Positions 274-16,929 of a stretch of 34,202 nt of DNA are shown here, piece by piece; positions within the stretch are counted from its first letter, which is position 1; every line of letters begins with the position of its first letter. The DNA is from a virus (taxonomy: Duplodnaviria > Heunggongvirae > Uroviricota > Caudoviricetes). The notes beneath the pieces are model-generated. The model saw only the letters and a list, made by a program, of their open reading frames with translations. It was not told the DNA's origin and ran no database searches. The stretch lies in IMG/VR virus record IMGVR_UViG_2531839481_000004, positions 1 through 34,202 of that record; one strand, given 5' to 3'. A program made the position numbers and the translations under genes.

Positions 274-2589
274 TCATTGTAATGCTTCACTGACGGGACC
301 TGCCGCCGCTTTGAATCCTTCCACCACGCCACCAAGAAATGCGGTGATGGGTTGCCAGTATTTCCAGACAACCAGCGCCACGCCCGCCAGTGCAGTAACC
401 ACAAGACCTATCGGACTGAGCAGAGCACCTAACAGACCAGATACGGCATACAGGGCAACGCGCAGCATCGCCAGCGGACCGGATGCCAGCACACGAAGCA
501 CCACGCCTGCGGCAGCCAGTCCACCGCGCAGTACCGCCAGAGGATTCATAAACATCACAGCAACAGCACGTAAACCGGATAATCCAGACCGCAATAGTGC
601 AACCGGCGCACCTGCTACAGTTTTCAGGACATTCCCCGTCAGTGATGCCGTGCGACGCAAAGACGACAACGGCGCAGTAAGTAAACCCGCTGCGTTGCCC
701 GATGAAGCAAGCCCGCGTCGCAGCAGTGCCAGTGGTGCGCCAGCCAGCCAGGACAACGCGCTGCTGGTTCGGGTTACTGCTGCCGTAACGGAAGGTAACG
801 TTTTGATATCCAGCACAGAGAATCCCAGACGGATGACTGCCAGCGGCCCCAGCACTGCAGCCAGCGCCACCGCTAAGGTGCCGAGGCCTACGGTAACCGC
901 AGCCACAACAGCCGCTACTTTCATCAGTGTGCCTGTCAGTTCCGGGTTAGCTTCCACCCAGCGGCGCAACGCTCCCGTGATGCTTTTCACCGTGTACAGA
1001 ATATCCATCAGCGGCTGGCGCAGCGTTTCGCCCAGGCTGCTGAAGGTGTTCTGCGCTCCGGTTTTGACCAGCAACCACTGAGCAGAAAGTGAGTCTTTGT
1101 TGATGTCAGATTCTTTCTGCATGGAACCGAGCGCATCATTGCCCGCTGTCAGTTTTAGCTGGCGCTGCAGTTCCGGAAGGTTGTTTGCCAGTTTCGCCGC
1201 GTCATCACCAAACTCTTTACCAAACAACATGGTCATGGCAGACAGACGCTTGTCCTGCGGCAGTGCGTTCACCTTCTCCAGCACACGCTGGATAGTTCCC
1301 ATCGCATCCTTCGTCATCTGCTTTTCAATCACTTCAGGATTGAGTTTCAGCAGATTCATCCCTTCAAAGAAACTCTTGCTTTGCATGGTGGCAATGGACA
1401 ATTCACGCACCATCGCGTTTGCTGCACTGGCTGCAACCTCCGGCGCAGCGCCCAGTGTCAGAAAGGTGGAACCCAGTGCCGCCGCTTTACGATAATCCAG
1501 GCGGTCAGCTACACCGCCCAGACGTTGCATCACATCAATGATGTCCGCCCCTTTCGACATGGCGTTATCATCCAGATAGTTCAGCGCATCGCCGAGCTGT
1601 TCAATATTGCGGGTAGGTATTTTGTAGAGCTGGGCGATTTTCCCCAGACTTTCTGACAGTTCATCCGCTGGCAGCTCAAAGGCTGTTGCCGCCTTTGCTG
1701 CCGTACTGGCGAAGGCCAGCAGGTCACGTTTCTGGTCTTCCCAGCTGTCGTCAGGGTTTGCGACGTTCATGCGCGCACCTCCTTCAACCAGTGCAGCGAA
1801 GTCCACCGCACCGTTTTCCATCGGCAACTGTTCGCTGGCAGCCTTGATGGCATCCTGCATTTCATAAAAACGTGCAGTGCGGTTGCCATTATCGTCACGC
1901 AGACCATTGACCTGCTTTGCCACACCTTTCATGGCATCTTCCATGCTGGTATAGCTTTTTACTGCCGCCATCACTGGCGCACCCATTGCCAGCCCTGCAG
2001 CCGTGGTAGTGGCTCCGGCTCCTGCGATGCGATCGCGCACTTCAAGCCGTCTTGAGTATTGTTCTCTGGCAGCGTTCATCCGTGCCTGTTGTTCACCCAG
2101 ACGTTTAAGTGCTTTTTGCTGGCCCTCCAGTGCCTGCCTTGTTTCTTCAGCATTTTTCTTAAGTTCTCGCTGGGCACTACTGAGTTGTCTGGTATCAATC
2201 CCTGATTCTTTAAGTGCCTGACGTTGTCTCTGGACCGCCCCCAACAAGCCGTTATAGGTCTGCTGAAGTTCCTGTACTCGTGTTTTGGCCTGACTGAATA
2301 ACTTTGCCTGCGCGGCGGTTGGCCTGTTAGTGGCAGCAAATTGTGTGGCGAGTTTTGCCGCCTCTTCGCGGGCTGCGTTCAGGTTGTTGGCTGTTATGGC
2401 TAGTTGCGAGCGCGTCTTGCGAAATTCATCAATTCTGCCAGCCTGCTTATTCAGTTCTTTGAGGCTGTTTCGGGTATTCTGAATTGCGCCAGCCAGCTCT
2501 TTCGAACTGGCCTGTGCAGCACGGAATGGGCGGGTGAGTTTGTCAACCGCATTAAGAATGACCTGCAGGCGCAGGTTGTTATCACTCAT
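274..2589 (-). CDS. tail tape measure protein (gpT-like), possibly C-terminally truncated
   Basis: 771 aa, coiled-coil-rich N-terminal half, Gly/Ala/Leu-rich hydrophobic repeats in C-terminal third; start ATG overlaps the E' stop (gATGAgtga) as in P2. Confidence 0.8.
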   Translation of the reverse strand: MSDNNLRLQVILNAVDKLTRPFRAAQASSKELAGAIQNTRNSLKELNKQAGRIDEFRKTRSQLAITANNLNAAREEAAKLATQFAATNRPTAAQAKLFSQAKTRVQELQQTYNGLLGAVQRQRQALKESGIDTRQLSSAQRELKKNAEETRQALEGQQKALKRLGEQQARMNAAREQYSRRLEVRDRIAGAGATTTAAGLAMGAPVMAAVKSYTSMEDAMKGVAKQVNGLRDDNGNRTARFYEMQDAIKAASEQLPMENGAVDFAALVEGGARMNVANPDDSWEDQKRDLLAFASTAAKAATAFELPADELSESLGKIAQLYKIPTRNIEQLGDALNYLDDNAMSKGADIIDVMQRLGGVADRLDYRKAAALGSTFLTLGAAPEVAASAANAMVRELSIATMQSKSFFEGMNLLKLNPEVIEKQMTKDAMGTIQRVLEKVNALPQDKRLSAMTMLFGKEFGDDAAKLANNLPELQRQLKLTAGNDALGSMQKESDINKDSLSAQWLLVKTGAQNTFSSLGETLRQPLMDILYTVKSITGALRRWVEANPELTGTLMKVAAVVAAVTVGLGTLAVALAAVLGPLAVIRLGFSVLDIKTLPSVTAAVTRTSSALSWLAGAPLALLRRGLASSGNAAGLLTAPLSSLRRTASLTGNVLKTVAGAPVALLRSGLSGLRAVAVMFMNPLAVLRGGLAAAGVVLRVLASGPLAMLRVALYAVSGLLGALLSPIGLVVTALAGVALVVWKYWQPITAFLGGVVEGFKAAAGPVSEALQ

Positions 2590-3018
2590 CGTTGGCCCCG
2601 CATCTCTGAATCGCTTTATACCGCCATTCCAGCACTTCGGTCAGCGGCATAACGTCAGTAACGGATGGCGGCCAGTGAAAAATGGTGGCGATATCTGCCA
2701 CCAGATCATCAACCGTCAGGCTGTCGGTAAACCGGCAAGCACCGACTTCTTCAACAAAAAAGTGACAACCTCAACCGACATGGCAGTGAGATCTGCCGGG
2801 TCCATCTCTGCAATTTCCTGTGCAGTCAGTGCCGGACTGGAGATGCGGGGGATCACGGTCATCATCGCGTTTACATCCATATCCATAATGGCCTGCAGGC
2901 GTGTACCGCGCAGCGCACCGGACTGCGGTTTACGCAGCACAATTTCGGTGATTTCTGTTTTACCGCGCTTGATGGGGGTATCCAGTTGAATGGTCTTTTC
3001 AGTCTGCTTATCGCTCAT
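2582..3018 (-). CDS. gpE+E' frameshift-extended tail chaperone (-1 frameshift at T_TTT_TTG, plus-strand 2755-2761)
   Basis: zero-frame codons ACT TTT TTG; the -1 frame stays open for ~58 codons and stops at TGA overlapping the T start codon. Confidence 0.6.
2716..3018 (-). CDS. tail assembly chaperone gpE
   Basis: 100 aa, position between tail tube gene and tape measure; contains slippery heptamer. Confidence 0.8.
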   Translation of the reverse strand: MSDKQTEKTIQLDTPIKRGKTEITEIVLRKPQSGALRGTRLQAIMDMDVNAMMTVIPRISSPALTAQEIAEMDPADLTAMSVEVVTFLLKKSVLAGLPTA

Positions 3019-3072
3019 TTTGCTGTCCTGTAAATTGGGTTCTGGCGCGGTATCCCGCGCCGTTCAGATATA

Positions 3073-3588
3073 TCAGAGGCCGAGGGCGTTGCGGTGCGCT
3101 TCCATCAGGTCCACACCGTCCACAATTTCCACCATGTTGATAAGGTCCACTTCATAGAGCACCTCACCATTGATGGTCAGCTTCGCGTAGCTGTTGGTAC
3201 TGGTCACTTTGGTGGTGTTGCTTTCGCCCGTCTTCCACTCGCCGGAATCCACTTCTTTGTGACGTCCACGCACCACAAGCTCCACGGCCTGCACTTCTCC
3301 GGTATCGTCACGCTGGATAGAGCCGGTAAAGCGCAACTGGATGCCATCCACCGTGGCTTTGCCCATCTGCTTAAACAGCAGCAGTTCAGTACCACCAATG
3401 GAAAATTCTGTATCCAGTGCACTGTCATCCAGTCCCAGATCCACATCAACTGCACCAGGCATTCCGCCGCCGCGATACTTCTCATATTTGCGGGTGAATT
3501 TCGGCAGCGTCAGCGACTCTACGATCCCCTGCCAGTTGTTCCCGTCGTTAAACAGGTTCAGATGTTTTAATTTGCGTGGTAAAGCCAT
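3073..3588 (-). CDS. major tail tube protein (gpFII-like)
   Basis: 171 aa, synteny after sheath gene, resembles P2 FII. Confidence 0.9.
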   Translation of the reverse strand: MALPRKLKHLNLFNDGNNWQGIVESLTLPKFTRKYEKYRGGGMPGAVDVDLGLDDSALDTEFSIGGTELLLFKQMGKATVDGIQLRFTGSIQRDDTGEVQAVELVVRGRHKEVDSGEWKTGESNTTKVTSTNSYAKLTINGEVLYEVDLINMVEIVDGVDLMEAHRNALGL

Positions 3589-3597
3589 GTTGTCCCC

Positions 3598-4770
3598 TTA
3601 CGCGCTTACCTGGCTGGCGAAATTCACCAGGTACTGATCGGTGATGCGCTGGCGCAGCATCAGATTTTCAAGTGGCGGCACTGGCGTGTAGTCATAGTCG
3701 ATGGTGAGTTTTCCGGCTTTCAGCGTGTCTTTGTCGTTCACCGACTCATCCAGCCAGCAATCACCACCAATGAGATAGCCCTGACTGACCAGGCTGCGCA
3801 TTTTGGCGCGGATACCTTCGATAATGTCGCGCGCCAGCGACGGGTTCAGCGGTTTGTCCACCGCCCACATGTGCGCTTCTGCCATTGTGTCCATCAGTAC
3901 CTGCGCTGTGCGGGTGTAGTTTTCGAAGGCAAAAAGCGGGTCATCACTCAGACAGCGGGAACCCCAGAAGCGGAAACCGTCTTTGCGGATAAGCGTGGTA
4001 ACGTCGTTCTGGTTAAGCAGACCTGCATCGGTTGCCGGGTCCTGCAGATCCCAGAACACATCAGCAGAAATTCCGGTGACACCGTTCACTCCCACGTTGG
4101 ACAGGCTTTTGTGCCATCCGGTCTGCTCGTCAATTTTGGCGCGCAGACCAAGCGCACGGGCGGTGGCATATGCCGTTGCTTCGGCATTCAGCGCCGTGTC
4201 CCAGCCAGTAAAGTCAGGCCAGATCAGCATCCCTTCGCGCTGGCTGAAGTTTTCGCGGTAAGTGATCGCCTCCTGTACTGTCTTGCAGCCATACGCTGAC
4301 AGGTAAGCAAACCCACGCAGGCTTTGCGCCACACTCAGCAACTCAGTAGCAACGGCTTTGTTATCGTGACCTGGCACGCCGAGAATGCGCGGTTTAACGC
4401 CGAGCTGTGTCTGGGCAGATAACAGGGCTTTCATGCCTGTTTTTTTACCTTCAGCAGTCACTGCGCCGATGATATTGGTCGTGGTTTCTTCTTCCGTTTC
4501 ACCCTGCGGCACACGCACAACAACGGTCACGGGTTTTGCCTGGTCAGCGATGGCATCCAGCGAACGGGCCAGCGTGCCGGACTCACCCGCTTTACCGCTG
4601 GCAGTCAGCACATCAGTGATCAGCACGGGTTTATTAAGAGGAAACATTTTTGCATCGGCATCATCGCCCGTGCAGACCATACCCACGATGGCGGTGCTCA
4701 CCGTGGTAATGGATCGGGTGCCTTCGTTGATTTCAACAACGCGCACCCCGTGGTGGTAATCCTGAGCCAT
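3598..4770 (-). CDS. contractile tail sheath protein (gpFI-like)
   Basis: 390 aa, synteny, resembles P2 FI. Confidence 0.9.
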
Positions 4771-4846
4771 AGCGGCGAACCTCCTGATTGGATTAGGCTT
4801 CGCCCTATGTTGAAGTGATTGTGCCCGACAAACAGCTAAGTGTAGT

Positions 4847-4864
4847 TGTACAGTTATTCACACA
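4847..4864 (-). promoter_or_regulatory. Ogr/B-type late promoter activator site (TGT-N12-ACA) upstream of FI
   Basis: tgtacagttattcacaca, about 85 bp upstream of the FI start. Confidence 0.45.
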
Positions 4865-4912
4865 AAATGACGGTATTTGTCTGCTTGCAGGGATAATCAA
4901 AATTATGCTGAT

Positions 4913-5479
4913 TCAGGGGGATTCATTGCTCTTATTTGCCGGAAATTTTCTATAAATGGTAGAAACGCCCACATCAAAAATCAGTGCAATACGCTGTCTT
5001 GATTCTCCGGCCTCGAGTAAACGTCCAATCTGTGCCCACTGTTCGGTGGTCAACTTAGGACGGCGTCCACCTACTCTGCCTTTGGCGCGAGCTGCAGCAA
5101 GCCCCGCCCTGGTACGTTCAACTATCAGTTCGCGCTCCATTTCAGCCAGGGCCCCCATGACATGAAAAAAGAAACGGCCCATTGGGGTACTGGTATCAAT
5201 ACTGTCAGTCAGGCTTCGGAAATTCACGCCACGCTGGCGCAGATCTTCTATCAGCGTAACGAGATGCCGCATACTGCGCCCCAACCTGTCCAGCTTCCAG
5301 ACAACCAGAGTGTCACCTGCCGATAATGTCCTGAGCAGTTTTTTCAGTCCCGGTCTGTCGGACTTAGTGCCACTGATTTTGTCCTCAAAAATCCGCTCAC
5401 ATCCCGCGCAGTTCAGTGCATTACGTTGCAAATCGGTGTTCTGGTCATTTGTTGACACGCGTACATAGCCAATAAGCAT
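4913..5479 (-). CDS. serine DNA invertase (Hin/Gin/Cin/Pin family)
   Basis: MLIGYVRVSTNDQ catalytic N-terminus (Ser in VRVST), C-terminal HTH; ATG at 5477-5479 (track start at 5485 is TTG). Confidence 0.9.
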   Translation of the reverse strand: MLIGYVRVSTNDQNTDLQRNALNCAGCERIFEDKISGTKSDRPGLKKLLRTLSAGDTLVVWKLDRLGRSMRHLVTLIEDLRQRGVNFRSLTDSIDTSTPMGRFFFHVMGALAEMERELIVERTRAGLAAARAKGRVGGRRPKLTTEQWAQIGRLLEAGESRQRIALIFDVGVSTIYRKFPANKSNESP

Positions 5480-5536
5480 GATCAATCCCCTGAATAAAAA
5501 CCGGGGATGATGCCAGTTAGTCGTAATCGCTGCATT

Positions 5537-5560
5537 TTCTTAAACGTTGGTTTGGGAGAA
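5537..5560. repeat. invertase crossover site (gix/cix-like), left
   Basis: ttcttaaacgttggtttgggagaa; shares ttggtttgggagaa with the reverse complement of 7426-7451 and resembles the Gin gix sequence class. Confidence 0.65.
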
Positions 5561-5920
5561 GCGGCAAAACGGGATGTGGGGACAGGGGAAAATCAGATAC
5601 CGGACATGGCCTCTTTTGCCAGTGGTGATGGATGGATGAAATTACCCAACGGGAAAATCCTGCAATATGGTCGTGGTGCGGTTACGCCGACATTATCGAC
5701 GCAAACAATGAGAATTACATTCAGCATCCCTTTCCCCAAAAAAGCGGACTGCGCCATGCTTACTCATTCTGGTGATGGCGGTGCGCCTTTAGGCGCTGGG
5801 CGAGGGTTCGTGATGACTGCAGAAGGCCCAACGTTAACCGGCTTTAATTCTGCTTACAGAACGTCATCAACCAGCGACACGGTATCGATGAATTACAGTT
5901 GGTGGGCTGTTGGTGAGTAA
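5561..5920 (+). CDS. alternative tail-fibre C-terminal variable segment (silent orientation; would fuse to the H constant region after inversion)
   Basis: reading frame continues through the crossover site; GLGE motif at the junction matches LGLGEG in H at the other crossover site. Confidence 0.55.
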   Translation, partial: AAKRDVGTGENQIPDMASFASGDGWMKLPNGKILQYGRGAVTPTLSTQTMRITFSIPFPKKADCAMLTHSGDGGAPLGAGRGFVMTAEGPTLTGFNSAYRTSSTSDTVSMNYSWWAVGE

Positions 5921-5940
5921 TTTTATTCAGGGTGATTTAT

Positions 5941-6384
5941 ATGAACGAATATGTTTATAGCGCAAGGCATAATGCTTTTTTCCCTGTGGATATGATTGAT
6001 AAATATAAATCAGAGGGATGGGATTTATCAGATGCTAAGGAAGTGAATCAAAATATTATCAGTGAGTTTATGGCTGAACCGCCACAAGGAAAAATCCGTA
6101 TTGCCGGAAATGATGGGCTGCCTGCGTGGGCAGATATTCCTCCACCCACGCATGAAGAGCTTATTGAAATTACTGAATCAGAAAGACAGCTATTAATTAA
6201 CCAGGCCAACGAATACATGAACAGTAAACAATGGCCCGGTAAAGCCGCTATTGGTCGTCTGAAAGGTGACGAACTGGCGCAATATAATTTGTGGCTGGAT
6301 TATCTGGACGCACTGGAGCTGGTCGATACTTCCGGTGCGCCAGATATTGAATGGCCTACGCCTCCGGCAGTTCAGGCCAGATGA
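5941..6384 (+). CDS. alternative tail fibre assembly chaperone (Tfa')
   Basis: C-terminus LDYLDALELVDTSGAPDIEWP parallels the C-terminus of 6356-6958; ATG with AGGGTGA SD (track start at 5932 is GTG). Confidence 0.7.
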   Translation: MNEYVYSARHNAFFPVDMIDKYKSEGWDLSDAKEVNQNIISEFMAEPPQGKIRIAGNDGLPAWADIPPPTHEELIEITESERQLLINQANEYMNSKQWPGKAAIGRLKGDELAQYNLWLDYLDALELVDTSGAPDIEWPTPPAVQAR

Positions 6385-6958
6385 CATCCGGCGCGGTGCT
6401 GGTATCTGTTGCCGTCACCGCGTCAATGTAATCCAGCACAGCGTTAAGGCGGGTTGTTTCTGCCTGCGTCAGTTTACGTCCGGCCTGCAATTTCAGCTGA
6501 ATCAGACTGATGGAGGCCATTGCAGTATCAATCAGCGACTGGCGCTGTGCTTCTGCTGCATCTACTGCTGCGCCGTGCTGTGCCTCGGTATCCGTCACCC
6601 ATTTCTCACCATCCCATTTATCGTATGGCGTTAACGGGGCGATAGTGGTTGTATTATCAGGGTAATCACCCGGAGCTGTGATTTCTTTTGATTCCCCTGT
6701 TTTGGTGCTAAAAACGATTTCACCGCGATGGTCTGGCACATATTCCCATGAGTTTAAATCCATCGAACGGCAGATAGCATAACCCGCCTTATGTGTGCCA
6801 GGGGCATCTAAACAGGAATATGCAGGGATACCGACACCAATGGCAAGAAATTCATTTGAAGTGGAAATATATTCCCGAGTTTCACCATCATAGTTATAGA
6901 CGGTAATATTCCCCGCCTTCGTGGCAATAAGCTCGCTATTTAATACGGCGTTATCCAT
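6356..6958 (-). CDS. tail fibre assembly chaperone (gpG/Tfa-like)
   Basis: 200 aa, conserved Tfa C-terminus VLDYIDAVTATDTSTAPDVIWP, immediately after H. Confidence 0.8.
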   Translation of the reverse strand: MDNAVLNSELIATKAGNITVYNYDGETREYISTSNEFLAIGVGIPAYSCLDAPGTHKAGYAICRSMDLNSWEYVPDHRGEIVFSTKTGESKEITAPGDYPDNTTTIAPLTPYDKWDGEKWVTDTEAQHGAAVDAAEAQRQSLIDTAMASISLIQLKLQAGRKLTQAETTRLNAVLDYIDAVTATDTSTAPDVIWPELPEA

Positions 6959-8487
6959 TATGCAGCCCTCACGATAAAGTTAAATGCAATATTTCGTGGA
7001 CGGGTTTCACTCCCGCCAGTATTACCGATACTCCCTCGTGAATGAAGTGTCGGTGATGGGATCAGACTCCCTCCTGTATTTGTGGCATCAAGCCCCCGTC
7101 CTTGTGTGTATGTCTTTTTGAAAATCGTAGCCAGTTCCCATTCATCTTTTGTGTCGTAACCATCATTGGCAACAACAATATGACGGTGCTTTTCCAGCAT
7201 CCCAGCCTGAAGGCTCAATAAAGCACGTCCTGCATCAATACCGCGCCCATCATCCCAGCCACGAATAAATTCACCTCGTAAATCAGGCAATTTATTTGTC
7301 GGGTAAGCCTTTGCCAGTTCCGGGTATTCTTCAGCAGAAAAAGCCGCCCCGTTGCATTTCAGCCAGCCTGTTGGAGGTGTCTCTGAAGGCCACGGAACAG
7401 GCGCACCAACAGGTAATGCTGAACCTTCTCCCAAACCAAGGTATGCGAGAAGACCAGCTACATCCTTTCCACTCAAATTAGTCAGCGTATTGTCCAGCGG
7501 TTGTTTACCTGCTAGCGCATTAAGCATTGTCGTGGCAAAGTTCGGGTCATTCCCCAGCGCCGCCGCCAGTTCGTTCAATGTATCCAGTGCCGCAGGTGCA
7601 GAACCCACCATTCCTGCAATCGCCGATTTCACAAAAGCCGTAGTGGCAATCTGTGTATTGTTGACCGACTGTGCCGCAGTAGGTGCTGTTGGCGTTCCGG
7701 TAAGTGCCGGACTCGACAGCGGCGCTTTCAGTGCCAGCGCATTATTAATAGTGGTACTGAATTTCGGGTCATTGTTAATGGCTGCGGCAATTTCTTTCAG
7801 TGTGTCCAGCGTGGCTGGCGCACCGTTAATCAGAGCAGTAATAGCGGCCTGAACAAACTCTGTGGTCGCAATTCGAGTGGTGTTATTTCCTGCTGCAGGC
7901 GTCGGCGCTTTTGGTTCTCCGGTAAATGTCGGATTATGTTTCTGCGCATACTGGGTATGAGGATCTTGTGCGGCAATGTGGTTTCTCATCTGGTCATCCA
8001 CATACAGCTTTAATTCCAGGACTTTATCATCCACGTATTTACGGGTTGCCAGCACTACAGCAGGGTCGATTTTCAGGATGATATTGTCCGTGCTGCTGGT
8101 AATCAGCACCATGCGCACGGTCTGGGTACGCCCGCTGCCTTCAGCCAGTTGCGGCTTATAGCTTTCCGGGCAGTTTCCCACGGCAATCAATGCCCCGGAC
8201 TCATCAAACAGGCCCACTTCACGTATCCACCAACCGCCCTCGTTTTCAGGGATCACCTGTTCAGCAATAATCTGGCTACTGTTCTGCGGGTCGATATAAA
8301 GCATATTCAGCGCAGCCCGGCGTTTCTCATTTACCAGTGCCGTCTGCTTTGCGTCCGGCGTTGGCAATACTCCGCCGCCATCGCCCACCGCCATATGGGT
8401 AATTTTTAGCGGCACACCGAGCGCGGCGGCGCTGGCAAGTTTCGCTGCGCCAATATCCGTCAGCAGGGTATAAAATTTTGTGCTCAT
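6958..8487 (-). CDS. tail fibre protein (gpH-like), constant N-terminal part plus currently expressed variable C-terminus
   Basis: 509 aa, internal fibre repeats, crossover site inside the coding region at about aa 346-354. Confidence 0.85.
   Translation of the reverse strand: MSTKFYTLLTDIGAAKLASAAALGVPLKITHMAVGDGGGVLPTPDAKQTALVNEKRRAALNMLYIDPQNSSQIIAEQVIPENEGGWWIREVGLFDESGALIAVGNCPESYKPQLAEGSGRTQTVRMVLITSSTDNIILKIDPAVVLATRKYVDDKVLELKLYVDDQMRNHIAAQDPHTQYAQKHNPTFTGEPKAPTPAAGNNTTRIATTEFVQAAITALINGAPATLDTLKEIAAAINNDPKFSTTINNALALKAPLSSPALTGTPTAPTAAQSVNNTQIATTAFVKSAIAGMVGSAPAALDTLNELAAALGNDPNFATTMLNALAGKQPLDNTLTNLSGKDVAGLLAYLGLGEGSALPVGAPVPWPSETPPTGWLKCNGAAFSAEEYPELAKAYPTNKLPDLRGEFIRGWDDGRGIDAGRALLSLQAGMLEKHRHIVVANDGYDTKDEWELATIFKKTYTQGRGLDATNTGGSLIPSPTLHSRGSIGNTGGSETRPRNIAFNFIVRAA
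7426..7451. repeat. invertase crossover site (gix/cix-like), right, inside H
   Basis: ttctcccaaaccaaggtatgcgagaa; inverted relative to 5537-5560. Confidence 0.65.
7495..7875 (-). repeat. tandem ~55-aa tail-fibre repeat within H (two copies)
   Basis: RIATTEFVQAAITALINGAPATLDTLKEIAAAINNDPKFSTT... versus TQIATTAFVKSAIAGMVGSAPAALDTLNELAAALGNDPNFATT... Confidence 0.6.
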
Positions 8488-9089
8488 GGATTCACTCTCA
8501 TTGTGTCAATAACATGGACCGCCCCGCCTTCATGCGCGGTGCCACCGGAAATAATCGTTTCGTTGATATACGGATAGATCGTGATTTCTTCGCCAAGATA
8601 GCTGGCGGCTCCCACCCAATACGGGCCGCTGGTCTGCAGATTGATGGACATGCCGATCATGTGGCGGCTACATGGTTTGGCATCGCTTATCAGTCGCTCA
8701 AGTTCCAGATAGGTATCTTCAGTGATGCCCTGGTCCTGCACGCCGATATCCAGGCGAAACGTGCCCGGTGCCTCTCCGGTTTGCCACCACTCAATAATGC
8801 GGATCAGAAAGCCGAACGGCTCCACCACCCGCCGCACGGCACTGGTGGTCCCTTTATGCTGATGAATATAAAAAGCATCCTTCACCACCTGGCGCTTGAC
8901 GCTTTCTGTCCAGCCTTCGTCCCAGCGATCCACAGAGAACGCCCAGGCGAGATAAGGCAGGAAGCTGACCGGGCAGGTAGCCGGATTCCACAAGTCACGC
9001 AGCGGCACCTGCAGATCAGAAATCCCGCTGCACGTTTGCGCCAGTCGGCGCTCCAGTGAAGTTGACCCCGATGGCAGCAGACTATTCAT
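8484..9089 (-). CDS. baseplate protein (gpI-like)
   Basis: 201 aa, synteny between J and H. Confidence 0.75.
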   Translation of the reverse strand: MNSLLPSGSTSLERRLAQTCSGISDLQVPLRDLWNPATCPVSFLPYLAWAFSVDRWDEGWTESVKRQVVKDAFYIHQHKGTTSAVRRVVEPFGFLIRIIEWWQTGEAPGTFRLDIGVQDQGITEDTYLELERLISDAKPCSRHMIGMSINLQTSGPYWVGAASYLGEEITIYPYINETIISGGTAHEGGAVHVIDTMRVNP

Positions 9090-9990
9090 CCGTTCCCCCG
9101 TTGGTCACGCTCCACTCCGTACATGATGCCGCCTGTGTTTTGTTCAGGACCACATCCGCCAGCGGAGAAGCCAGTTCCACACGTTGAACACCCTCAACAT
9201 GCAGAGCAGCAAAGATGGCGCTACGGCGAATATCCCGACCAAGCCTCGTCTGGCTGGCAATGTACTTCTGCAGACTGGCTTTTGCCGCTGCCATTACCGG
9301 CTCTGCCTCCGGTCCCGGATAGAGAAAAATGGTGGCTTCCACGCGATACGGGATGATTTCTGCGCTGCGAACCGTAAGACGGTCAGCCACCGGGCGGACG
9401 TTCTCACTGTTCAGAGCTTTTTCCACCACGTCCAGCAGGTCTTTTTCTGCAGTTCCATCGCCTTCGCGGCTAAGGACAGTCAGCACCACCTCTGCAGGTG
9501 CCGGGCTGGTTGCGCTGGCATCCGCCACCCGACCGTCGGCGCTTCGGGCATGAAATTCATAAGCTGCAGTTGGCCCCGCAACAGAAAGCCCTTCAAAGGC
9601 TGCAGGCACACGCAGGCGTAACGCTTCATCGCTTTCCATCACAGCTGCAACGGGCGGCACAGCATCATTATCAGCAGGCGTCACCGTCAGGCGTTTCACG
9701 TTGTAGTTGGCAGCGAGCTGGTCAAGATCGCCGCCCATCGCGTAAGCCACCATCACCGCCTGCGCGGCTTCGTTAATGCGCTGGCGCAGAAGCAACTCAC
9801 GGTAAGCGTTCTCCTGCAACAATTTAGTGACGGGTTCAGATTCCAGTTCCAGCGTGCGGATCACGGCTTCCTGCTCATCTTTCGGATGAAGCGCCACAAA
9901 TTCTGCCTTGCGTTCGGCAAGCAGCGTCTCAAAGTCCGGCACATCCACAATCTGCGGCGCAGGCAACTGCGAAAGGTCAATCACTGCCAT
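9082..9990 (-). CDS. baseplate wedge protein (gpJ-like)
   Basis: MAVIDLSQLPAP... resembles P2 gpJ from the N-terminus onward; ATG at 9988-9990 (track ORF is 5'-extended). Confidence 0.85.
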   Translation of the reverse strand: MAVIDLSQLPAPQIVDVPDFETLLAERKAEFVALHPKDEQEAVIRTLELESEPVTKLLQENAYRELLLRQRINEAAQAVMVAYAMGGDLDQLAANYNVKRLTVTPADNDAVPPVAAVMESDEALRLRVPAAFEGLSVAGPTAAYEFHARSADGRVADASATSPAPAEVVLTVLSREGDGTAEKDLLDVVEKALNSENVRPVADRLTVRSAEIIPYRVEATIFLYPGPEAEPVMAAAKASLQKYIASQTRLGRDIRRSAIFAALHVEGVQRVELASPLADVVLNKTQAASCTEWSVTNGGTDE

Positions 9991-10336
9991 TCTCTGCTCC
10001 TGTTGATACGGAAAGGGAAACAGGCACACCGTTATTACGCCGCCCGCTCAGCGCCACCACCATTGAACCGTCAAAATTGCTGTTGATGGTGATGGAATCC
10101 AGCGTCATCCGTGGCTCCCAGCGACTCAGCGCCACATACACTGCCGACATGACCTGCAGGCGTAATGCCGGATTTTGTGGCTGGTCTATCAGTGCCGACA
10201 GCAGGGAACCATATTCACGCCGAGCAATGCGGCTACCCTGCGGCGTCAGCAGAATGTCCCGCACCGACTGGCGCAGATGGTCAATATCAGTAATGACTTT
10301 GCCGCTGGTATTGTTCATCCCGCTATAAAGCGTCAT
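9977..10336 (-). CDS. baseplate protein gpW (gp25-like)
   Basis: 119 aa, resembles P2 gpW. Confidence 0.85.
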   Translation of the reverse strand: MTLYSGMNNTSGKVITDIDHLRQSVRDILLTPQGSRIARREYGSLLSALIDQPQNPALRLQVMSAVYVALSRWEPRMTLDSITINSNFDGSMVVALSGRRNNGVPVSLSVSTGAENGSD

Positions 10337-10911
10337 ACCGGGCCTCCGGTTGTATCGCCGCCTTTCAGGACGCCAGTATGCTGATGCGCATCAACCACGA
10401 TCCCGTTAGAACTCATCGCTCCGCCGCCCTGGGTAACGCCACCATTGATCACCACTTCGCTGTTAATGCGCGTGCGGTCAGCCTCCAGTACAAACTCACT
10501 GGTTTTCATGGTGATGTTGTCAGCGGCCTCAATGACCATTGATTTGATGCCCCTGACATACCAGCGCCCGGTGGCGGGTTCGTATTCAAACCAGCCACCG
10601 TCAGGATGTTCTGTCACGCAGGCGTCCGCCGACGTCGACGGTGGCGCGAACTGATTCGAATAGATGGCGGGTAACGCAAAGGCGGTTTCCAGATTGCCGC
10701 CCAGACTCAGCAGCACCACCTGCTCACCTTCCGATGGTCGCCACCATGTGCGGGCATTCCCGGCACGCAGCGTCAGCCAGCTGATCCAGTTGGTTTCAAG
10801 CTCGCCCGTTTTCACCCGGCAAAGCCAGTTTTCCCTGTCCACTTCGGTGACTACCCCAGTGCGGATCAGGTTGGTGATAAGGCGCATGATTTCGGTTAAT
10901 TGTGCGTTCAT
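10333..10911 (-). CDS. baseplate spike/assembly protein gpV
   Basis: 192 aa, N-terminus aligns with P2 gpV. Confidence 0.85.
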   Translation of the reverse strand: MNAQLTEIMRLITNLIRTGVVTEVDRENWLCRVKTGELETNWISWLTLRAGNARTWWRPSEGEQVVLLSLGGNLETAFALPAIYSNQFAPPSTSADACVTEHPDGGWFEYEPATGRWYVRGIKSMVIEAADNITMKTSEFVLEADRTRINSEVVINGGVTQGGGAMSSNGIVVDAHQHTGVLKGGDTTGGPV

Positions 10912-10957
10912 AGGGAAAGGTTGCCATCAGGGGAAGAAAGGCGGCAGTGCTGCAACT

Positions 10958-10975
10958 TGTATCAGTGCTGATACA
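10958..10975 (-). promoter_or_regulatory. Ogr/B-type late promoter site (perfect dyad TGTATCAG-TG-CTGATACA) upstream of V
   Basis: TGT-N12-ACA dyad in the S-V intergenic region. Confidence 0.45.
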
Positions 10976-10979
10976 AAAA

Positions 10980-11426
10980 TCACCCCGCCAACCATTGCAG
11001 AATCATGTCGCGGGTCATTGCCTCAACATCATCATTTACGCCCAGAAGGCGACGCTCTGCGTAACGGACCTCCGGTCCTTTGCGGCTGACGCGATCACGC
11101 AGGCCATAATGGTGAACGCGGGCAATGCGCTGCACCTTACCTTCAAACTGCACGCTGGCAGAATCCTCGCTGGCGGCGGTTTTCAGGTATTTTGTGGTGC
11201 GAAGTTTTGTAAACATCTGCCGTTTGATGCGGCCTTTTTTACTGCGTGCTGTTACTCGCCTCGGTTCATAGCTGCTGCCATCTGGATTGCGCTGCATCCT
11301 GATATTCTGCTGCTGTGTCCGGCGCAGTTCCTGCGCCAGCTGGCGCATCATGCGGCTTCTCGTGGCTGGTTCCAGATTCGCCAGCAAGGCACTCAGCCAG
11401 TCGTCCACCTTCTGCAGTTCAGCCAC
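10980..11426 (-). CDS. tail completion protein gpS
   Basis: 148 aa, synteny; start codon appears to be GTG. Confidence 0.7.
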   Translation of the reverse strand: MAELQKVDDWLSALLANLEPATRSRMMRQLAQELRRTQQQNIRMQRNPDGSSYEPRRVTARSKKGRIKRQMFTKLRTTKYLKTAASEDSASVQFEGKVQRIARVHHYGLRDRVSRKGPEVRYAERRLLGVNDDVEAMTRDMILQWLAG

Positions 11427-11850
11427 GTTTCACCGTCCACATTTCTTCAGGTTCATCGGGTTCTGCTACAGCTTCAACGCTCGACACACTGCCGTCAGTG
11501 CTGACCAGCACACGTTCCGTCAGTTGCAGATTAAGGCTGATATCACAGACATCGTTGCGCAAAATATCCACATCAAAGGTGAATAGCTTTTCCCGTAACG
11601 CCGGGTTATTGATGGCATCGGGCTGGTTATCCCGAAGCCACAGTAAAACCGGGGCCATCAGCAGATTCTGGTCGCCGCTGAAATCCTCTATCACCACGTT
11701 CAGGGTATAGCGGTACTCCCATGACATGGAGCTGGCCCCCGTGGCAACCAGCGAACCGTTATCCACAAACAGATGCAGTTTGTCCGGGTTATTGCGGACA
11801 TAAGGCACAGCTTTATTGAGGGCGTGGCGCAGGGATTGTGGTTTGTTCAC
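11419..11850 (-). CDS. tail completion protein gpR
   Basis: resembles P2 gpR (SLRHALNKAV... FVDNGS...); probable GTG start with AGGAGC SD, track start is TTG at 11871. Confidence 0.7.
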   Translation of the reverse strand: MNKPQSLRHALNKAVPYVRNNPDKLHLFVDNGSLVATGASSMSWEYRYTLNVVIEDFSGDQNLLMAPVLLWLRDNQPDAINNPALREKLFTFDVDILRNDVCDISLNLQLTERVLVSTDGSVSSVEAVAEPDEPEEMWTVKRG

Positions 11851-12103
11851 TGTTTCGCTCCTGACACGCAATAATCATGTCCACTTTGTCTGCACAGACC
11901 GCCCAGGCGGCCTCCGTTTCATCCAGCAACGCATTCAGATCACCGTTAGTGCGCGGTGCTGCCTGCTCCAGCCGACACGGCGTCACTCGCGGACAACCAC
12001 TGACGGTAAGCTGCACCTCCGGTGAGTGCCGGACGTTCCCGCAGCCGGATAATGTCAGCAGGCAAAGGAGTATCAGCCCAGTGGCGTAAATCCTCGTTCT
12101 CAC
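11813..12103 (-). CDS. outer-membrane spanin lipoprotein (LysC/Rz1-like), embedded in the lysB 3' end
   Basis: lipobox LLTLSGC, +1 frame overlap with lysB; apparent GTG start. Confidence 0.55.
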   Translation of the reverse strand: MRTRIYATGLILLCLLTLSGCGNVRHSPEVQLTVSGCPRVTPCRLEQAAPRTNGDLNALLDETEAAWAVCADKVDMIIACQERNSEQTTIPAPRPQ

Positions 12104-12374
12104 GTTTCAGTTCCTCGATCCGGCGTTGTCGTTGTCTCAGCTGTGCGCTGGTCTGTTCTGCTTCGGCATAGAGCCGCGCCTGCTCCCGGTTATTGGTTTC
12201 AGTCAGAATGGACAGGCTGATAAGCTGGCTGTTGCTCTTTGCCAGTGCCTGGCTTTTGCTCTGCAGCTCGTTTGCCTGCGTGCTGATGGTCTGGCTGGCA
12301 TCAGCCAGCCGCCACGTCTGCCAGCCCAGCGCCGCCAGTAATAACGCCAGCACAACCAGCAGCAACCGGTTCAT
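11946..12374 (-). CDS. inner-membrane spanin (LysB/Rz-like)
   Basis: N-terminal TM helix followed by coiled coil, 142 aa. Confidence 0.7.
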   Translation of the reverse strand: MNRLLLVVLALLLAALGWQTWRLADASQTISTQANELQSKSQALAKSNSQLISLSILTETNNREQARLYAEAEQTSAQLRQRQRRIEELKRENEDLRHWADTPLPADIIRLRERPALTGGAAYRQWLSASDAVSAGAGSTAH

Positions 12375-12748
12375 GCTGCTACCTGTTGCGCCATCTGATT
12401 ACGGGTGATCCAGAAGGCAATAACGGTCAGTAGATAAAAGACCAGGGTAATAGCCCACCCCGTCCATGCGAGACTTACAACAATCAGCAATCGCATCACC
12501 CAACTGATAAATACGTTTTCTTTTCGGGTAATTGTCTTCAGCAAAGATGCCCTTAACTCCTGCCAGAGCGGGCCATTCTGAATTAACGCAGCCAGTGCTA
12601 CCGGAATTACCGCCCATGTCAGCAAACAGGCTACCCAAACGCCGGACGCTGCCAGTACCGGAAAGATCCCCTGCGGATACACCATTGCTGCGATTAACAG
12701 CGCCATCCATAACATCAGAAACAGTCCGCTGATTAATTTCTTTTTCAT
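12371..12748 (-). CDS. LysA-like membrane protein (lysis timing)
   Basis: about 4 predicted TM helices, position after endolysin; ATG at 12746-12748. Confidence 0.55.
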   Translation of the reverse strand: MKKKLISGLFLMLWMALLIAAMVYPQGIFPVLAASGVWVACLLTWAVIPVALAALIQNGPLWQELRASLLKTITRKENVFISWVMRLLIVVSLAWTGWAITLVFYLLTVIAFWITRNQMAQQVAA

Positions 12749-12749
12749 T

Positions 12750-13262
12750 TCAGTTTGCTCCCTGTAAACACCAGGCCATCTCCCGCGCACGGCGGTTATC
12801 CAGCCCCTGATTAAACACACCTTTTACATAAACCCAGCGCGGTAACTGTCGGCACGCATCCGCCCAGCGCCGCTGATTGAGCAATTTCACCAGCGTGGAG
12901 CTGCAGGCATTGCCTGTCCCCACGTTGAAGGCAAACGACACCACCGAGTCATACACCTTTTGTGGCGGCTGTTGCTTCACACACCTTTCCAGCGCCCGCT
13001 CCACACGCAGCACGTTGGAGATCAGCCCTTCTGCTGCCTGTCGCTCCGTAATGGTTTTGCCGGGAATGACGCCCGATGTATTACCAATGCCGTCGGTCCA
13101 GACACCCGCGCTGCACTGATACGGCTGCAGACGACAGCCTTCGTAATCGGCAATCAGTTTCAGCCCCTCCACGGAGGTGTGAAGCTGCTGAAAACCCGGC
13201 AGCGTGGCAGCAATAGCCAGCACGGTCCCGACAAGGCAGCGTTTAACGATTGATGGATTCAT
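12750..13262 (-). CDS. SAR endolysin (lysozyme with N-terminal signal-anchor-release domain)
   Basis: EGCRLQPYQCSAGVWTDGIGNT matches the P1 Lyz/phage 21 R catalytic region; N-terminal hydrophobic LVGTVLAIAATLPGF. Confidence 0.85.
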   Translation of the reverse strand: MNPSIVKRCLVGTVLAIAATLPGFQQLHTSVEGLKLIADYEGCRLQPYQCSAGVWTDGIGNTSGVIPGKTITERQAAEGLISNVLRVERALERCVKQQPPQKVYDSVVSFAFNVGTGNACSSTLVKLLNQRRWADACRQLPRWVYVKGVFNQGLDNRRAREMAWCLQGAN

Positions 13263-13458
13263 AGTCCTCCCGCGAGATCTGCCCGTCGCGCAGAAGCTGG
13301 TAGGCTTTGTGTTTGTAGTACCAGTTGATAGCCAGCATCAGCACACCAATCATCAGGCCGCCCAGCGTTGAGGCATCCTTGATGGACAAATCGCCCAGCC
13401 AGGCCAGCACGACGGCGATGCAATACGTGATAAAGGCGCTGATTCGCTCAAGCGTCAT
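13243..13458 (-). CDS. holin (two-TM, pinholin-like size class)
   Basis: 71 aa, two hydrophobic helices, charged C-terminus, directly upstream of the endolysin. Confidence 0.7.
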   Translation of the reverse strand: MTLERISAFITYCIAVVLAWLGDLSIKDASTLGGLMIGVLMLAINWYYKHKAYQLLRDGQISREDYESINR

Positions 13459-13461
13459 AAT

Positions 13462-13665
13462 TCAGTCCCATAGCTGGACGGTCTGCACGGTGGTGGGGGT
13501 CGGAATGTCCGGCAGCTCCACCTGCAGCCCGTGAGGTAAAAAGGGGCCGTATTCGGCAAGCCCCGGATTTGCCTTCAGTACCTGCTCCGTGACACCCTGC
13601 GTGCGCCCGTAATGACGCCAGCAAAGCGCGTCCACCGTGTCATACTGATGCGCACGCACTTTCAT
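13462..13665 (-). CDS. tail protein gpX (LysM-like)
   Basis: 67 aa, synteny with P2 X. Confidence 0.7.
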   Translation of the reverse strand: MKVRAHQYDTVDALCWRHYGRTQGVTEQVLKANPGLAEYGPFLPHGLQVELPDIPTPTTVQTVQLWD

Positions 13666-14129
13666 CAGATAAGCTCCACTGTGCAGTGCGGCGCATCCTG
13701 TACCCGGCTGATGGCCCAGCGGGCGTCACGCCACAAATCACCGCTGGCTTCTGCCAGTTCTTCGCCCCGCTTCACACCGGATGCCGTGGCGTCATAATCC
13801 TGGTATCGTTCGTTGAGCATGGCGCGTGCCCAGCAGTAAACCGCGTTGAAATAGTGCTGAATGCGCTCACTTTTGCCGTCCAGCTGTTCCGCCGGAACCT
13901 CTGCCAGCGAGGCATATCCCAGCATCTGCTGGCGTCTGCGAAACTCATACAGCTCTGCGTTGACCTCCGAAATTGCCGACAGCGCAACCTGCTTTAAACG
14001 CGGCTGTGTCACCGTGCCGTCAGTGCGCATCACACTGCGGAACTCCGACAGGTCCACATCAGGCCAGAACGGCGTATTTCTGATGATTTCCGCCTGTTCC
14101 GGTGCCTGTTCTGGCGCAACAAACTTCAT
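13665..14129 (-). CDS. head completion/stabilisation protein gpL
   Basis: aligns with P2 gpL (IRNTPFWPDVDL...); ATG at 14127-14129 with AGGAGA SD (track start at 14192 is GTG). Confidence 0.8.
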   Translation of the reverse strand: MKFVAPEQAPEQAEIIRNTPFWPDVDLSEFRSVMRTDGTVTQPRLKQVALSAISEVNAELYEFRRRQQMLGYASLAEVPAEQLDGKSERIQHYFNAVYCWARAMLNERYQDYDATASGVKRGEELAEASGDLWRDARWAISRVQDAPHCTVELI

Positions 14130-14224
14130 GCTGCTGTCTCCTGAAATAGAGGGCGGTGGACGGGGTTTTGATGTGGCAGTGCCTTTCGCCACCCCGTGCC
14201 GCCCGTGCGCGGGGGCACGTTCTG

Positions 14225-14875
14225 TCAGCGGCTGTCATTGCGCAGTCTGCGCTCCAGCTGCTGTTTGTCTTTTTTCACGCCACAGCGGGGATCGAGCTGT
14301 AACGCATGGTTGAGATGGTTAAGGGCGGACGCCGGATTGCTTTCACTCAGGACCGCGCCAATCGCTTTATGCAGACGCGCCCGTGACTGGTCCGGCATAT
14401 CCAGACCGTCTGTCAGCTCCAGCGTCTGCAGCAACAGATCGGCATCAAAGCCGGTGGCGGCAAGCATTGCGCTCTGCGCGGCGTCTGCCATTTCCTCTGC
14501 CAGCACGGTCTGCACGTTGCGGTTACCCAGCGGCATCACCCAGCCATGACGCAGGGCATGACGCCCGATCTCCAGCGCCCCGGCATAATCTCCGGCATCA
14601 ATGCGCCACAGCATCACGTACATCAGCACGTCATCCTGTTGAGCGCCTCCGGCAGCCAGGACACCCTCTGCCCAGGCGGCGTACTTCGGCAGCAGCTCCA
14701 CCTTGATTTCCGCTTTTTTGACCGTGGACTGAACGCCCTTGAGACGGCGGCGGTCTTCCGCCAGTTGCAGCAGCATCAGGTCATAGCCCGATGCGTGGCG
14801 AACACTGCCGCCCTCGCGGGCGGCCTGTTCAGCCTGAACGCGCAGGCGATGCTGCCGTGCGGGACTCAGGCTCAT
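14225..14875 (-). CDS. terminase small (endonuclease) subunit gpM
   Basis: 216 aa, synteny. Confidence 0.8.
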   Translation of the reverse strand: MSLSPARQHRLRVQAEQAAREGGSVRHASGYDLMLLQLAEDRRRLKGVQSTVKKAEIKVELLPKYAAWAEGVLAAGGAQQDDVLMYVMLWRIDAGDYAGALEIGRHALRHGWVMPLGNRNVQTVLAEEMADAAQSAMLAATGFDADLLLQTLELTDGLDMPDQSRARLHKAIGAVLSESNPASALNHLNHALQLDPRCGVKKDKQQLERRLRNDSR

Positions 14876-14878
14876 GGA

Positions 14879-15937
14879 TTACGCTCCGGTTTCGGCTGCG
14901 GCGGCGCTGAAATCACCAATCTGGATGTTTTCCACCAGTGCGGCACAGCGGTAGTCCTCAACCACATAGGCTTCGTTAACGGATTCAAAGTTTTCAATCC
15001 GGTCACGTTTCGGGTTGTCGATAACTGAACGGCGGCGGGTGTCTTCCTGCCAGTAGATGGACAGGTTATCCAGACGGGTGATCAGCAGCGCATTCGGCGG
15101 GAAGAACGGCGCACGCACGGCCTGCAGGCCACCCATGCGTTTCTGACTGATGATCATATCGGCAGCCAGTTTTTCACTGTTTTCCTGCTCTTTGTTGACC
15201 AGCGGGAAATACTTGTCAGACAGCAGTTCACGACCGCAAATCACCACCAGATCGTCATCGTCCTGGTAGACCACGTCGATAAGCTCATTGACGGCATCCA
15301 TCACCACGGCGTCCAGGTTGGCATATTCGCCACCTTTCCCGACTTTCACTGCGCCCGGTGTGGTTTCACCGCCCGTGGTGGTGCTGCCCATGACGTGATC
15401 CGGTGCATCCTCACGGATTTTCTGCAGCCAGCCTTTATTCACATCCTGCAGTAGCGGGTTTTCGCTACGGTTGGAGGTTTTCGCACGCTTCACGCCGTTA
15501 AAGCCGATCATGATGCGGTCCAGTGCCTGACGTTTCACGATGGCGTTACGGATACGCACCTGGAAATCCTGAAACTTCGCCCACAGGTCCAGCTTCGCGT
15601 AGGTCAGTACCGTGTCAAAGTTGGTCTGCTCGCATTTGTATTCCACATCGACCATCAGCGTCGGATCGACAGGCTCACGCTCTTTCGCGGTGGTGTCAGT
15701 GGTTCCGGCAATGGTGCTGCCAACACCCAGCCCCAGCAGCTGACCGGACTGCTCAGTCACTGGCGTGACGTTAATCAGCGTCAGGAAAGCGGCGGACTGC
15801 TGGATTTGGTCTTCCAGCGTCTGCTGCACAGACGGCTCCACAGTGAACTTGCTGGACAGTTCTTCAACTGCCACACCGTTCAGACGCGCCAGCTGCTGCA
15901 GGTAAGCGTTAAAAGCAAAGCGGGTATTCTTCTTCAT
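14879..15937 (-). CDS. major capsid protein gpN
   Basis: 352 aa, synteny. Confidence 0.9.
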   Translation of the reverse strand: MKKNTRFAFNAYLQQLARLNGVAVEELSSKFTVEPSVQQTLEDQIQQSAAFLTLINVTPVTEQSGQLLGLGVGSTIAGTTDTTAKEREPVDPTLMVDVEYKCEQTNFDTVLTYAKLDLWAKFQDFQVRIRNAIVKRQALDRIMIGFNGVKRAKTSNRSENPLLQDVNKGWLQKIREDAPDHVMGSTTTGGETTPGAVKVGKGGEYANLDAVVMDAVNELIDVVYQDDDDLVVICGRELLSDKYFPLVNKEQENSEKLAADMIISQKRMGGLQAVRAPFFPPNALLITRLDNLSIYWQEDTRRRSVIDNPKRDRIENFESVNEAYVVEDYRCAALVENIQIGDFSAAAAETGA

Positions 15938-15953
15938 CAGGTTTTGTGCTCCA

Positions 15954-16787
15954 TCAGCAATTGGTCAGAGTGTCAGCGGGGGCGTTACCGCCTGTTGCAC
16001 GCTGGCGGTAGTCCTGGCGGCTGTCTTCATGACTCAGCTTATTCACCAGTTCGTTAAAGGCGGTTTGCTGCTCCTGCAGAGCAGTCTCCAGTTCAGACAG
16101 GCGTTCTTCCTGCTCAGACAGGGATTTTTCGGTGCGTGCGCTCAGGTTCTGCTGCTCAGTGGCGACCAGCTCCACGGCCTTATGCACATCAGAGAACCGG
16201 GCGTCATCGGACTGCTCTTTTTTGGTAAACAACGCCGTGACACGGGCAAACAGGGACGGTTTGTCATCCTGGATTTCTTCCAGTTCGATCACCGTTTCCT
16301 CTGCAGCGGTAAAGAGATTTGCAGGATTCTGCTTGCGGTTTGCCAGCGGGTTATGAGCTGCACTGGCGCTGAATGTCAGCATTTCAGTGCCCAGACTGGC
16401 AGGGTCATCAGTGGCAGCCAGGCCAACCAGGTAGGCTTTGCCCGTATCAGCGAACTTCGGGCTGACTTCCATAGAGGTGAATAATTTCTGGCCTTTTTTC
16501 ACCAGCTCCACCAGGGACTCCGTTGGCTCAACGTCGGCATACAGCGCCATCTTGCCTGCCAGTGGACCTTCCGTGATTTCTTCAGCAAACAGCGCCGTCA
16601 CCTTGCCGTAGCGGTTAAAGGTGCTGTCCGGCAGATAAGACTTGATGTGCTCAAGGTTAATCAGCGCGGTATACACCGCCGGGTTGTAGCTGGCTGCCAT
16701 CTGTTCCAGCCATTCACGCTGGATTTCGCGTCCATCGGTGGTGGCACCTTCCACCCCGATGCGAAAACGCTTTGCTTTCACTGTCAT
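15954..16787 (-). CDS. capsid scaffolding protein gpO
   Basis: 277 aa, synteny. Confidence 0.85.
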   Translation of the reverse strand: MTVKAKRFRIGVEGATTDGREIQREWLEQMAASYNPAVYTALINLEHIKSYLPDSTFNRYGKVTALFAEEITEGPLAGKMALYADVEPTESLVELVKKGQKLFTSMEVSPKFADTGKAYLVGLAATDDPASLGTEMLTFSASAAHNPLANRKQNPANLFTAAEETVIELEEIQDDKPSLFARVTALFTKKEQSDDARFSDVHKAVELVATEQQNLSARTEKSLSEQEERLSELETALQEQQTAFNELVNKLSHEDSRQDYRQRATGGNAPADTLTNC

Positions 16788-16865
16788 GAGCCGTGCTCCG
16801 TTAGAAAAAACTTACTGGAGCCTTATGGTTGCGGTGATGGGGGCAGTGAAACAATGCGCGGTATT

Positions 16866-16883
16866 TGTACCGACAACCACACA
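16866..16883. promoter_or_regulatory. Ogr/B-type late promoter site in the divergent O/P control region
   Basis: TGTACCGACAACCACACA (TGT-N12-ACA). Confidence 0.45.
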
Positions 16884-16929
16884 AACCGCAGGCGGGGAAA
16901 GCCTTCATTCAAGGCTGTAGGTTTGTGCC

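Follow-up and report, generated by a model that had tools for sequence, protein, structure and literature searches.

Positions 4913-8487 of the Caudoviricetes sequence analysed here (IMG/VR record IMGVR_UViG_2531839481_000004; its full 34,202 nucleotides are called the window throughout) form part of the late region of a P2-like prophage. The locus is very probably a two-state invertible tail-fibre cassette of the Pin/Gin type, situated in the G-FI ('Z/fun') slot of an ssrA-side P2-like prophage, in which a serine DNA invertase would exchange one tip of the fibre protein H and its chaperone for another. The strongest evidence is a comparison with Escherichia coli AF5, which shows that both orientations exist in near-identical prophages. 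We place the mechanism of the locus with high confidence in the Pin/Gin/Cin/Hin class, and find no departure from the known pattern. The kind of module is itself already known, from the G segment of Mu, the C segment of P1, the P segment of e14 and P2-like prophages that carry an invertase in their Z/fun slot.

Both orientations in near-identical prophages

Both junctions expected after inversion were constructed in silico and used to search 5,426 complete E. coli genomes. E. coli AF5 (NZ_OZ547033.1) has the flipped right junction, with 700 bp matched at 100% identity. Contiguous junctions numbered 120 for the native right form, with a best identity of 97.9%, and 49 for the flipped form. Alignment of the window to AF5 divides into three blocks, each with at least 99.95% identity: positions 281-5561 are collinear, 5547-7442 are reversed, and 7425-16787 are again collinear.

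Apart from this reversal, the two prophages are nearly clonal. AF5 is 99.98% identical to the window over 16.5 kb and 99.994% identical over the rest (16672-34202), which leaves only three true substitutions over about 34 kb, at 2503, at 15739 and at one further position within 16672-34202. An additional 'mismatch' at 7440, in the reversed block, is produced where the alignment overruns the recombination core by one base into a non-identical outer half-site. Because near-clonal copies differ by a precise inversion that ends in a 15-bp identical part of the two crossover sites, the difference bears the trace of conservative site-specific inversion; and because the copies differ by only three single-nucleotide changes, the flip is very recent.

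A difference in orientation could also arise with no invertase involved, either through RecA-dependent recombination between short inverted repeats or as an assembly artefact, given that the repeats do share 15 identical bases and that assemblers can choose either orientation of a repeat-flanked block. However, efficient recombination by RecA normally requires more than 15 bp of identity, and an assembler's choice of orientation still requires reads that support it. Moreover, the breakpoints fall exactly within sites of the cix/gix/pix consensus that lie beside a cognate invertase, and both orientations recur in many independent complete genomes. We therefore consider an origin of this sort highly improbable.

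The cassette, its crossover sites and its invertase

The features of the locus, and the late genes on either side of it, are as follows.

4913-5479, minus strand: serine DNA invertase of the Pin/Gin/Cin/Hin family, 188 aa (Pfam Resolvase, 3.3e-53; HTH_7, 1.5e-15)
5390-5461, minus strand: candidate recombinational enhancer (invertase gene nt 19-90), equivalent to the annotated enhancer of P1 cin
5535-5560: left, invertase-proximal crossover site, 26 bp, TTTTCTTAAACG-TT-GGTTTGGGAGAA, core at 5547-5548
5549-5920, plus strand: H'v, silent C-terminus of H, 123 codons and stop (Gp53-like_C, 7.9e-13)
5941-6384, plus strand: Tfa', chaperone paired with H'v, silent in the present orientation (Caudo_TAP, 3.1e-30)
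6356-6958, minus strand: Tfa, P2 G-like chaperone, expressed in the present orientation (Caudo_TAP, 1.1e-32)
6958-7437, minus strand: Hv, expressed variable C-terminus of H, within the inverted block (Collar, at H residues 361-408)
7426-7451: right crossover site, inside H, 26 bp, TTCTCCCAAACC-AA-GGTATGCGAGAA, core at 7438-7439
7440-8487, minus strand: constant N-terminal part of H, about 349 codons, outside the segment (Phage_tail_fib, 1.2e-63); it belongs to the last gene of the V-W-J-I-H operon
6958-8487, minus strand: native H as a whole, 509 aa (Pfam Phage_tail_fib N-terminus and Collar)
10911 down to 8484, minus strand: baseplate genes V, W, J and I
4770-3598, minus strand: sheath gene FI
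3588-3073, minus strand: tube gene FII

The order V-W-J-I-H, chaperone, FI, FII is also that annotated in the near-identical AF5 prophage. Between the minus-strand chaperone and FI are inserted a second chaperone, a gp53-like open reading frame (ORF), a 26-bp site and a serine recombinase. The two crossover sites bracket 1,889 bp containing two convergent fibre C-termini and two convergent Tfa chaperones, a content that the initial annotation had read from the letters and that the Pfam profile matches bear out. The arrangement can be written Sc-site-(Sv U U' S'v)-site-invertase.

Several searches converge on the same two crossover sites. A repeat search returned one long inverted pair, 5535-5561 and 7425-7451, which is 27 nt long, 81% complementary and separated by 1863 nt. 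The sites have 15 identical bases in common: the inverted match is exact in the inner half-sites and at the core dinucleotide but not in the outer halves, as is likewise the case for cixL and cixR of P1. The 14-mer TTCTCCCAAACCAA occurs at exactly two places in the window with up to two mismatches allowed, against 0.21 expected. A half-site matrix was derived solely from P1 cix and Mu gix and is for that reason independent of the window; it gave its two highest scores to these sites (24.7 and 23.3 bits), with the next position in the window scoring 10.3 and the best of 30 shuffles 15.3. The uniqueness of the 14-mer and the matrix ranking together indicate that the sites are real, that they belong to the gix/cix family and that there are exactly two of them. 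Both align with cix, gix and the site of a P2-like prophage in enteropathogenic E. coli (EPEC), so that the alignment with gix and cix proposed at the outset as a check finds each of them in agreement with the consensus. The inverted pair and the right-hand limits 7426-7451 first reported are thus upheld, but the full left site begins at 5535 and not at 5537.

With only two sites, the locus is difficult to read as a multi-site, shufflon-like system with more than two fibre variants, comparable to Min of p15B or to a three-repeat P2 locus in EPEC. Such a variant does exist in another P2-like prophage of strain E2348/69 (PMC4272514). In the window, however, just two sites rise above background, no third crossover site was found either with the 14-mer (two mismatches) or with the cix/gix half-site matrix, and there are just two fibre C-termini and two chaperones. 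A shufflon with three or more sites, of the p15B Min or R64 Rci type, was therefore rejected, and we assign a multi-site arrangement almost no probability.

The position of the sites within the reading frames is what would be required of a fibre switch. Across the right site, H reads ...AYLGLGEGSALP, the site lying within the H codons for L-G-L-G-E, and across the left site the silent frame reads ...NVGLGEAAKRD; the claim that the right site falls in H at LGLGEG and that GLGE recurs in the silent frame is thereby confirmed by translation across both sites. When H from 8487 to 7438 is joined to 5549-5920, the result is an open 473-aa protein, ...AYLGLGEAAKRDVGTGENQ...WWAVGE, such that both orientations yield an open H frame (509 aa native, 473 aa flipped). 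In AF5, where the constant part of H is collinear with and identical to that of the window, the flipped H' is an uninterrupted 473-aa ORF identical to this predicted product. RefSeq annotates the same AF5 region (stretch L001, 8979-10400) as a 136-aa 'gp53-like domain-containing protein' and a 'phage tail protein, incomplete' pseudogene. The split is an artefact of annotation, of a sort that invertible fibre genes typically produce.

In Pfam terms the two tips are unrelated, one being of the Collar and the other of the Gp53-like_C family; the gp53-like match covers the last 92 residues of the plus-strand ORF that ends at 5920 (listed as 5546-5920). By analogy, unrelated tip families would fit recognition of different receptors. 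The chaperone genes converge with a 29-bp overlap (6356-6384), and an 18-nt inverted repeat in this region (6294-6311 and 6420-6437) reflects the homologous C-terminal motifs LDYLDAL and LDYIDAV of the two chaperones, encoded on opposite strands.

The gene at 4913-5479 had been called a serine recombinase with the N-terminus MLIGYVRVST, and this identification is substantiated by its Pfam domains, by a match to the Gin structure (PDB 3UJ3, E=1.9e-92 over residues 1-184) and by identities of 86% to PinE of e14, 80% to the invertase of the EPEC E2348/69 P2 remnant, 78% to Cin of P1 and 75% to Gin of Mu. Identities of 75-91% to characterised proteins, those of the cassette included, settle the family. 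The ORF is intact; alignment confirms that the nucleophile S9, whose loss was to have spoken against an active enzyme, is retained, and Y5, R7 and the DRLGRS motif are the same as in Gin and Cin. Invertase mutants that act independently of the host protein Fis arise through the changes H106Y and M114V; both positions are wild type here, and the PDB Gin sequence bears M114V. Basic residues of helix B and residues of helix 1 of the DNA-binding domain are uniquely conserved in Fis-dependent invertases (McLean et al., PMC3798978), and in Hin those that contact Fis or the enhancer are K47, R48 and K51 together with Q151, R154 and L155 (PMC3798978). The corresponding residues are all present in the window's invertase, as K46, K47 and R50 (helix B) and as Q150, R153 and L154 (helix 1).

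The initial annotation also suggested looking for a Fis-dependent enhancer in the 5' end of the invertase gene, and a candidate is found there. In the P1 record, the enhancer of C inversion is annotated at cin nt 19-90, and the equivalent DNA of the window (5390-5461) is 78% identical to cin and 72% identical to gin. It includes two 15-mers that match the Fis consensus GNNYRNNWNNYRNNC, at 5443-5457 and 5395-5409, in positions shared with cin and gin. The one at gene nt 71-85, GCGCGGGATGTGAGC, fits the consensus perfectly, and the one at gene nt 23-37, which reads GGTCATTTGTTGACA on the bottom strand, has a single mismatch, at +7. Their centres are 48 bp apart, and the nearer centre lies 97.5 bp from the centre of the left crossover site, compared with 96.5 bp, as counted here, in Mu and e14. 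The 48-bp spacing agrees with the described enhancer of about 65 bp, which has a Fis site at each end, and for hin a distance of about 100 bp to the crossover site is reported (PMC3798978). The window therefore offers a candidate pair with the geometry of Mu and e14, made up of consensus matches of a kind that is frequent, and this stretch may act as an enhancer through which inversion would depend on Fis.

Two further observations concern the DNA upstream of the invertase. A weak terminator-like hairpin followed by a run of T lies at 5518-5499 on the minus strand, between the left site and the start of the invertase; it could reduce transcription running on from the segment into the invertase gene, and it shows no obvious conservation in the EPEC locus. 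The invertase and Tfa' genes have near-identical translation-initiation regions, over about 22 nt, TTTTATTCAGGG(G/T)GATT..AT.ATG (5480-5502 and 5918-5943). This likeness amounts to a 12-nt perfect inverted repeat (5488-5499 and 5921-5932), which may be due to chance or to a common ribosome-binding context.

As we envisage the switch, dimers of the invertase would bind the two 26-bp sites, assisted by host Fis bound to an enhancer within the first ~90 bp of the invertase gene. The enzyme would cut both sites at the central AA/TT and rotate the ends, so that the 1,889 bp from core to core would be inverted. H would keep its promoter and its first ~349 codons, and its last 160 codons (the collar-type tip) together with Tfa would be exchanged for the 123-codon gp53-like tip and Tfa'. 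Progeny virions would thus carry one of two receptor-binding tips.

Relation to known inversion systems

The closest characterised relative is the P segment of e14 with its invertase PinE. PinE and the window's invertase agree at 58 of their first 60 residues, the identity between TfaE and Tfa of the window is 91%, the inner half-sites GGTTTGGGAGAA are the same, and pixR of e14 matches the reverse complement of the left site at 25 of 26 positions. The e14 segment is also of similar size (about 1.8-1.9 kb) and has the same layout. However, the fibre genes of e14, a defective lambdoid element, are fragmentary, with stfE a pseudogene, whereas in the window the cassette adjoins a full-length H gene of P2 type in a late operon that is likewise of P2 type.

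A functional precedent that is closer still, and in a P2-type context, is the locus in a P2-like prophage of EPEC E2348/69 (NC_011601, 2977580-2979467), for which paired-end sequencing and PCR revealed two orientations within clonal cultures, 93% being forward (Goldberg et al. 2014, PMC4272514). The gene order of this locus is that of the window (collar-type tip, Tfa, Tfa', gp53-like tip, invertase, sheath gene). Its invertase-proximal site is identical to the reverse complement of the left site at 26 of 26 positions, and its segment measures 1,888 bp as against 1,889 bp. The EPEC locus is nevertheless a remnant that lacks the constant part of H, a truncated integrase abutting its distal site, whereas H in the window is complete.

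The G segment of Mu with Gin and the C segment of P1 with Cin have the constant fibre N-terminus, the two C-termini, the two chaperones and the invertase outside the segment in common with the window, and their sites are 26 bp of the same consensus; in P1, the enhancer is likewise in the 5' end of the invertase gene. They differ in several respects. Their segments are longer (3 kb in Mu and 4.2 kb in P1, against 1.9 kb), and the phages that carry them are not of the P2 type. The core dinucleotide of the window is AA/TT, like that of cix, whereas that of gix is GA/TC. In addition, cin of P1 reads towards its segment, and cixL overlaps the 3' end of cin, whereas in the window, as in Mu, the site is upstream of the invertase.

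The late genes of P2 and 186 have their order in common with the window, V W J I H G - FI FII E T (U D) ogr, the module being inserted at the dash. In the P2 reference, H and G are followed by a terminator and then by the opposite-strand gene fun(Z) before FI, and there is no invertase; in 186 the fibre chaperone leads directly to terminator t45 and promoter pJ, again with no invertase. The fibre gene K of 186, however, has a single annotated 'Mu-like inversion crossover site' (stretch L008, 12962-12987), a degenerate gix-like relic that suggests descent from, or exchange with, an invertible fibre cassette. The statement that the module is absent from P2 and 186 therefore holds for the invertase and the second cassette, but not entirely for the sites, of which 186 K retains a relic.

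Among P2-like phages more broadly, a DNA invertase is 'often' present in the Z/fun hotspot, along with inversion of adjacent genes (bioRxiv 2024.10.15.618418). In the phage collection that we searched, 77 records share the region at the megablast level, and a 'DNA invertase' adjoins two tail-fibre assembly genes in several of them, including Escherichia phage 500465-1, Klebsiella phage KP12 and Escherichia phage Cartapus.

Loss of tail genes and the effect of the switch

Positions 1-290 of the window consist of an ogr-like late activator (minus strand, ~28-246) and its upstream DNA, and from position 281 on the sequence is that of the middle of the tape-measure gene T. Relative to AF5, about 2.37 kb are missing, comprising the 3'-terminal 769 nt of T and the whole of U and D, with a 10-base overlap at the junction. 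As a result, T encodes 771 aa in the window against 1025 aa in AF5. The deletion junction was present in none of the 5,426 complete E. coli genomes (0/5,426).

Five points weigh against the favoured reading. This copy, having lost T', U and D, is probably unable to build tails. The orientation data come from different isolates and not from one culture of the source strain. A difference in receptor specificity, and hence in host range, between the two tips is suggested by analogy. The Fis sites are consensus matches only, and perfect matches occur at 1.55 per kb in the window. Finally, no sigma-70-like promoter was predicted for the invertase on the minus strand between the left site and the ATG (5480-5600).

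Some of these points would be expected if the switch were a fossil, its architecture intact but its invertase unexpressed or inactive, and if the difference between the window and AF5 recorded a single old event. The copy is decaying, as the deletion attests, the predicted promoter is lacking, and the two orientations were seen in separate isolates. But a single old event is difficult to reconcile with three single-nucleotide differences in about 34 kb, and the invertase ORF is intact, with every functional residue kept. Furthermore, inversion occurs in cultured EPEC at a locus whose proximal site is identical and whose invertase is 80% identical, even though the P2 remnant there is far more degraded. 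A fossil switch is, in our judgement, very unlikely.

The favoured reading thus remains that of a functional two-state cassette, although its effect in this particular prophage may be nil. With the 3' end of T, and U and D, lost, the switch would have no effect on host range here unless tail genes were supplied in trans. Inversion can still take place in this copy, and the switch, to all appearance intact and recently active, is likely to be phenotypically inconsequential here. The original proposal, that the prophage switches fibre specificity by inversion, accordingly stands as regards the enzyme, the sites, the layout, the in-frame fusions and the flipped state in AF5, and falls short in that a host-range switch is probably not realised by this copy alone.

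The prophage has lost tail genes, but its invertase, candidate enhancer and sites are intact, and the invertase might persist because it acts in trans on other Pin/Gin-type segments of the chromosome. Fin of Fels-2 reportedly acts in trans on the hix sites of Salmonella. We regard this explanation as unlikely; if it were true, several prophage fibre cassettes or host loci would have their orientations coupled.

Elsewhere in the prophage, two cargo genes (19771-23447, minus strand) lie between the region of replication gene A and the portal gene, at the known tin/old hotspot of P2. One encodes a P-loop NTPase of 554 aa with a PADLOC match to the candidate defence family PDC-S49 (1.1e-29); the other encodes a 525-aa protein, assigned by RefSeq to the LA2681-family HEPN proteins and with only a weak TPR match in PADLOC. 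The two probably form a pair that acts in anti-phage defence. At the right end of the window (30082-34202) lie, in this order, the CI repressor, the integrase, a 222-aa hypothetical protein and the host gene glaH; the neighbours of the prophage on its ogr side in AF5 are a BRCT-domain gene and ssrA. Because glaH is found at one end and ssrA on the other side in AF5, the element occupies the ssrA-csiD/glaH interval. No tRNA or tmRNA gene that could mark the attachment site was found in the window, ssrA lying just outside it in AF5. P2-like phages of the Fels-2/SopE-phi type integrate at ssrA.

For annotation, we recommend that such a locus be described as a single H gene with a silent alternative 3' cassette; beyond annotation, the importance of the finding is small. 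Assemblies of strains that carry loci of this kind show just one of two coexisting states. The module offers two ready-made pairs of tip and chaperone on a P2 chassis, for use in the engineering of phage host range or in typing.

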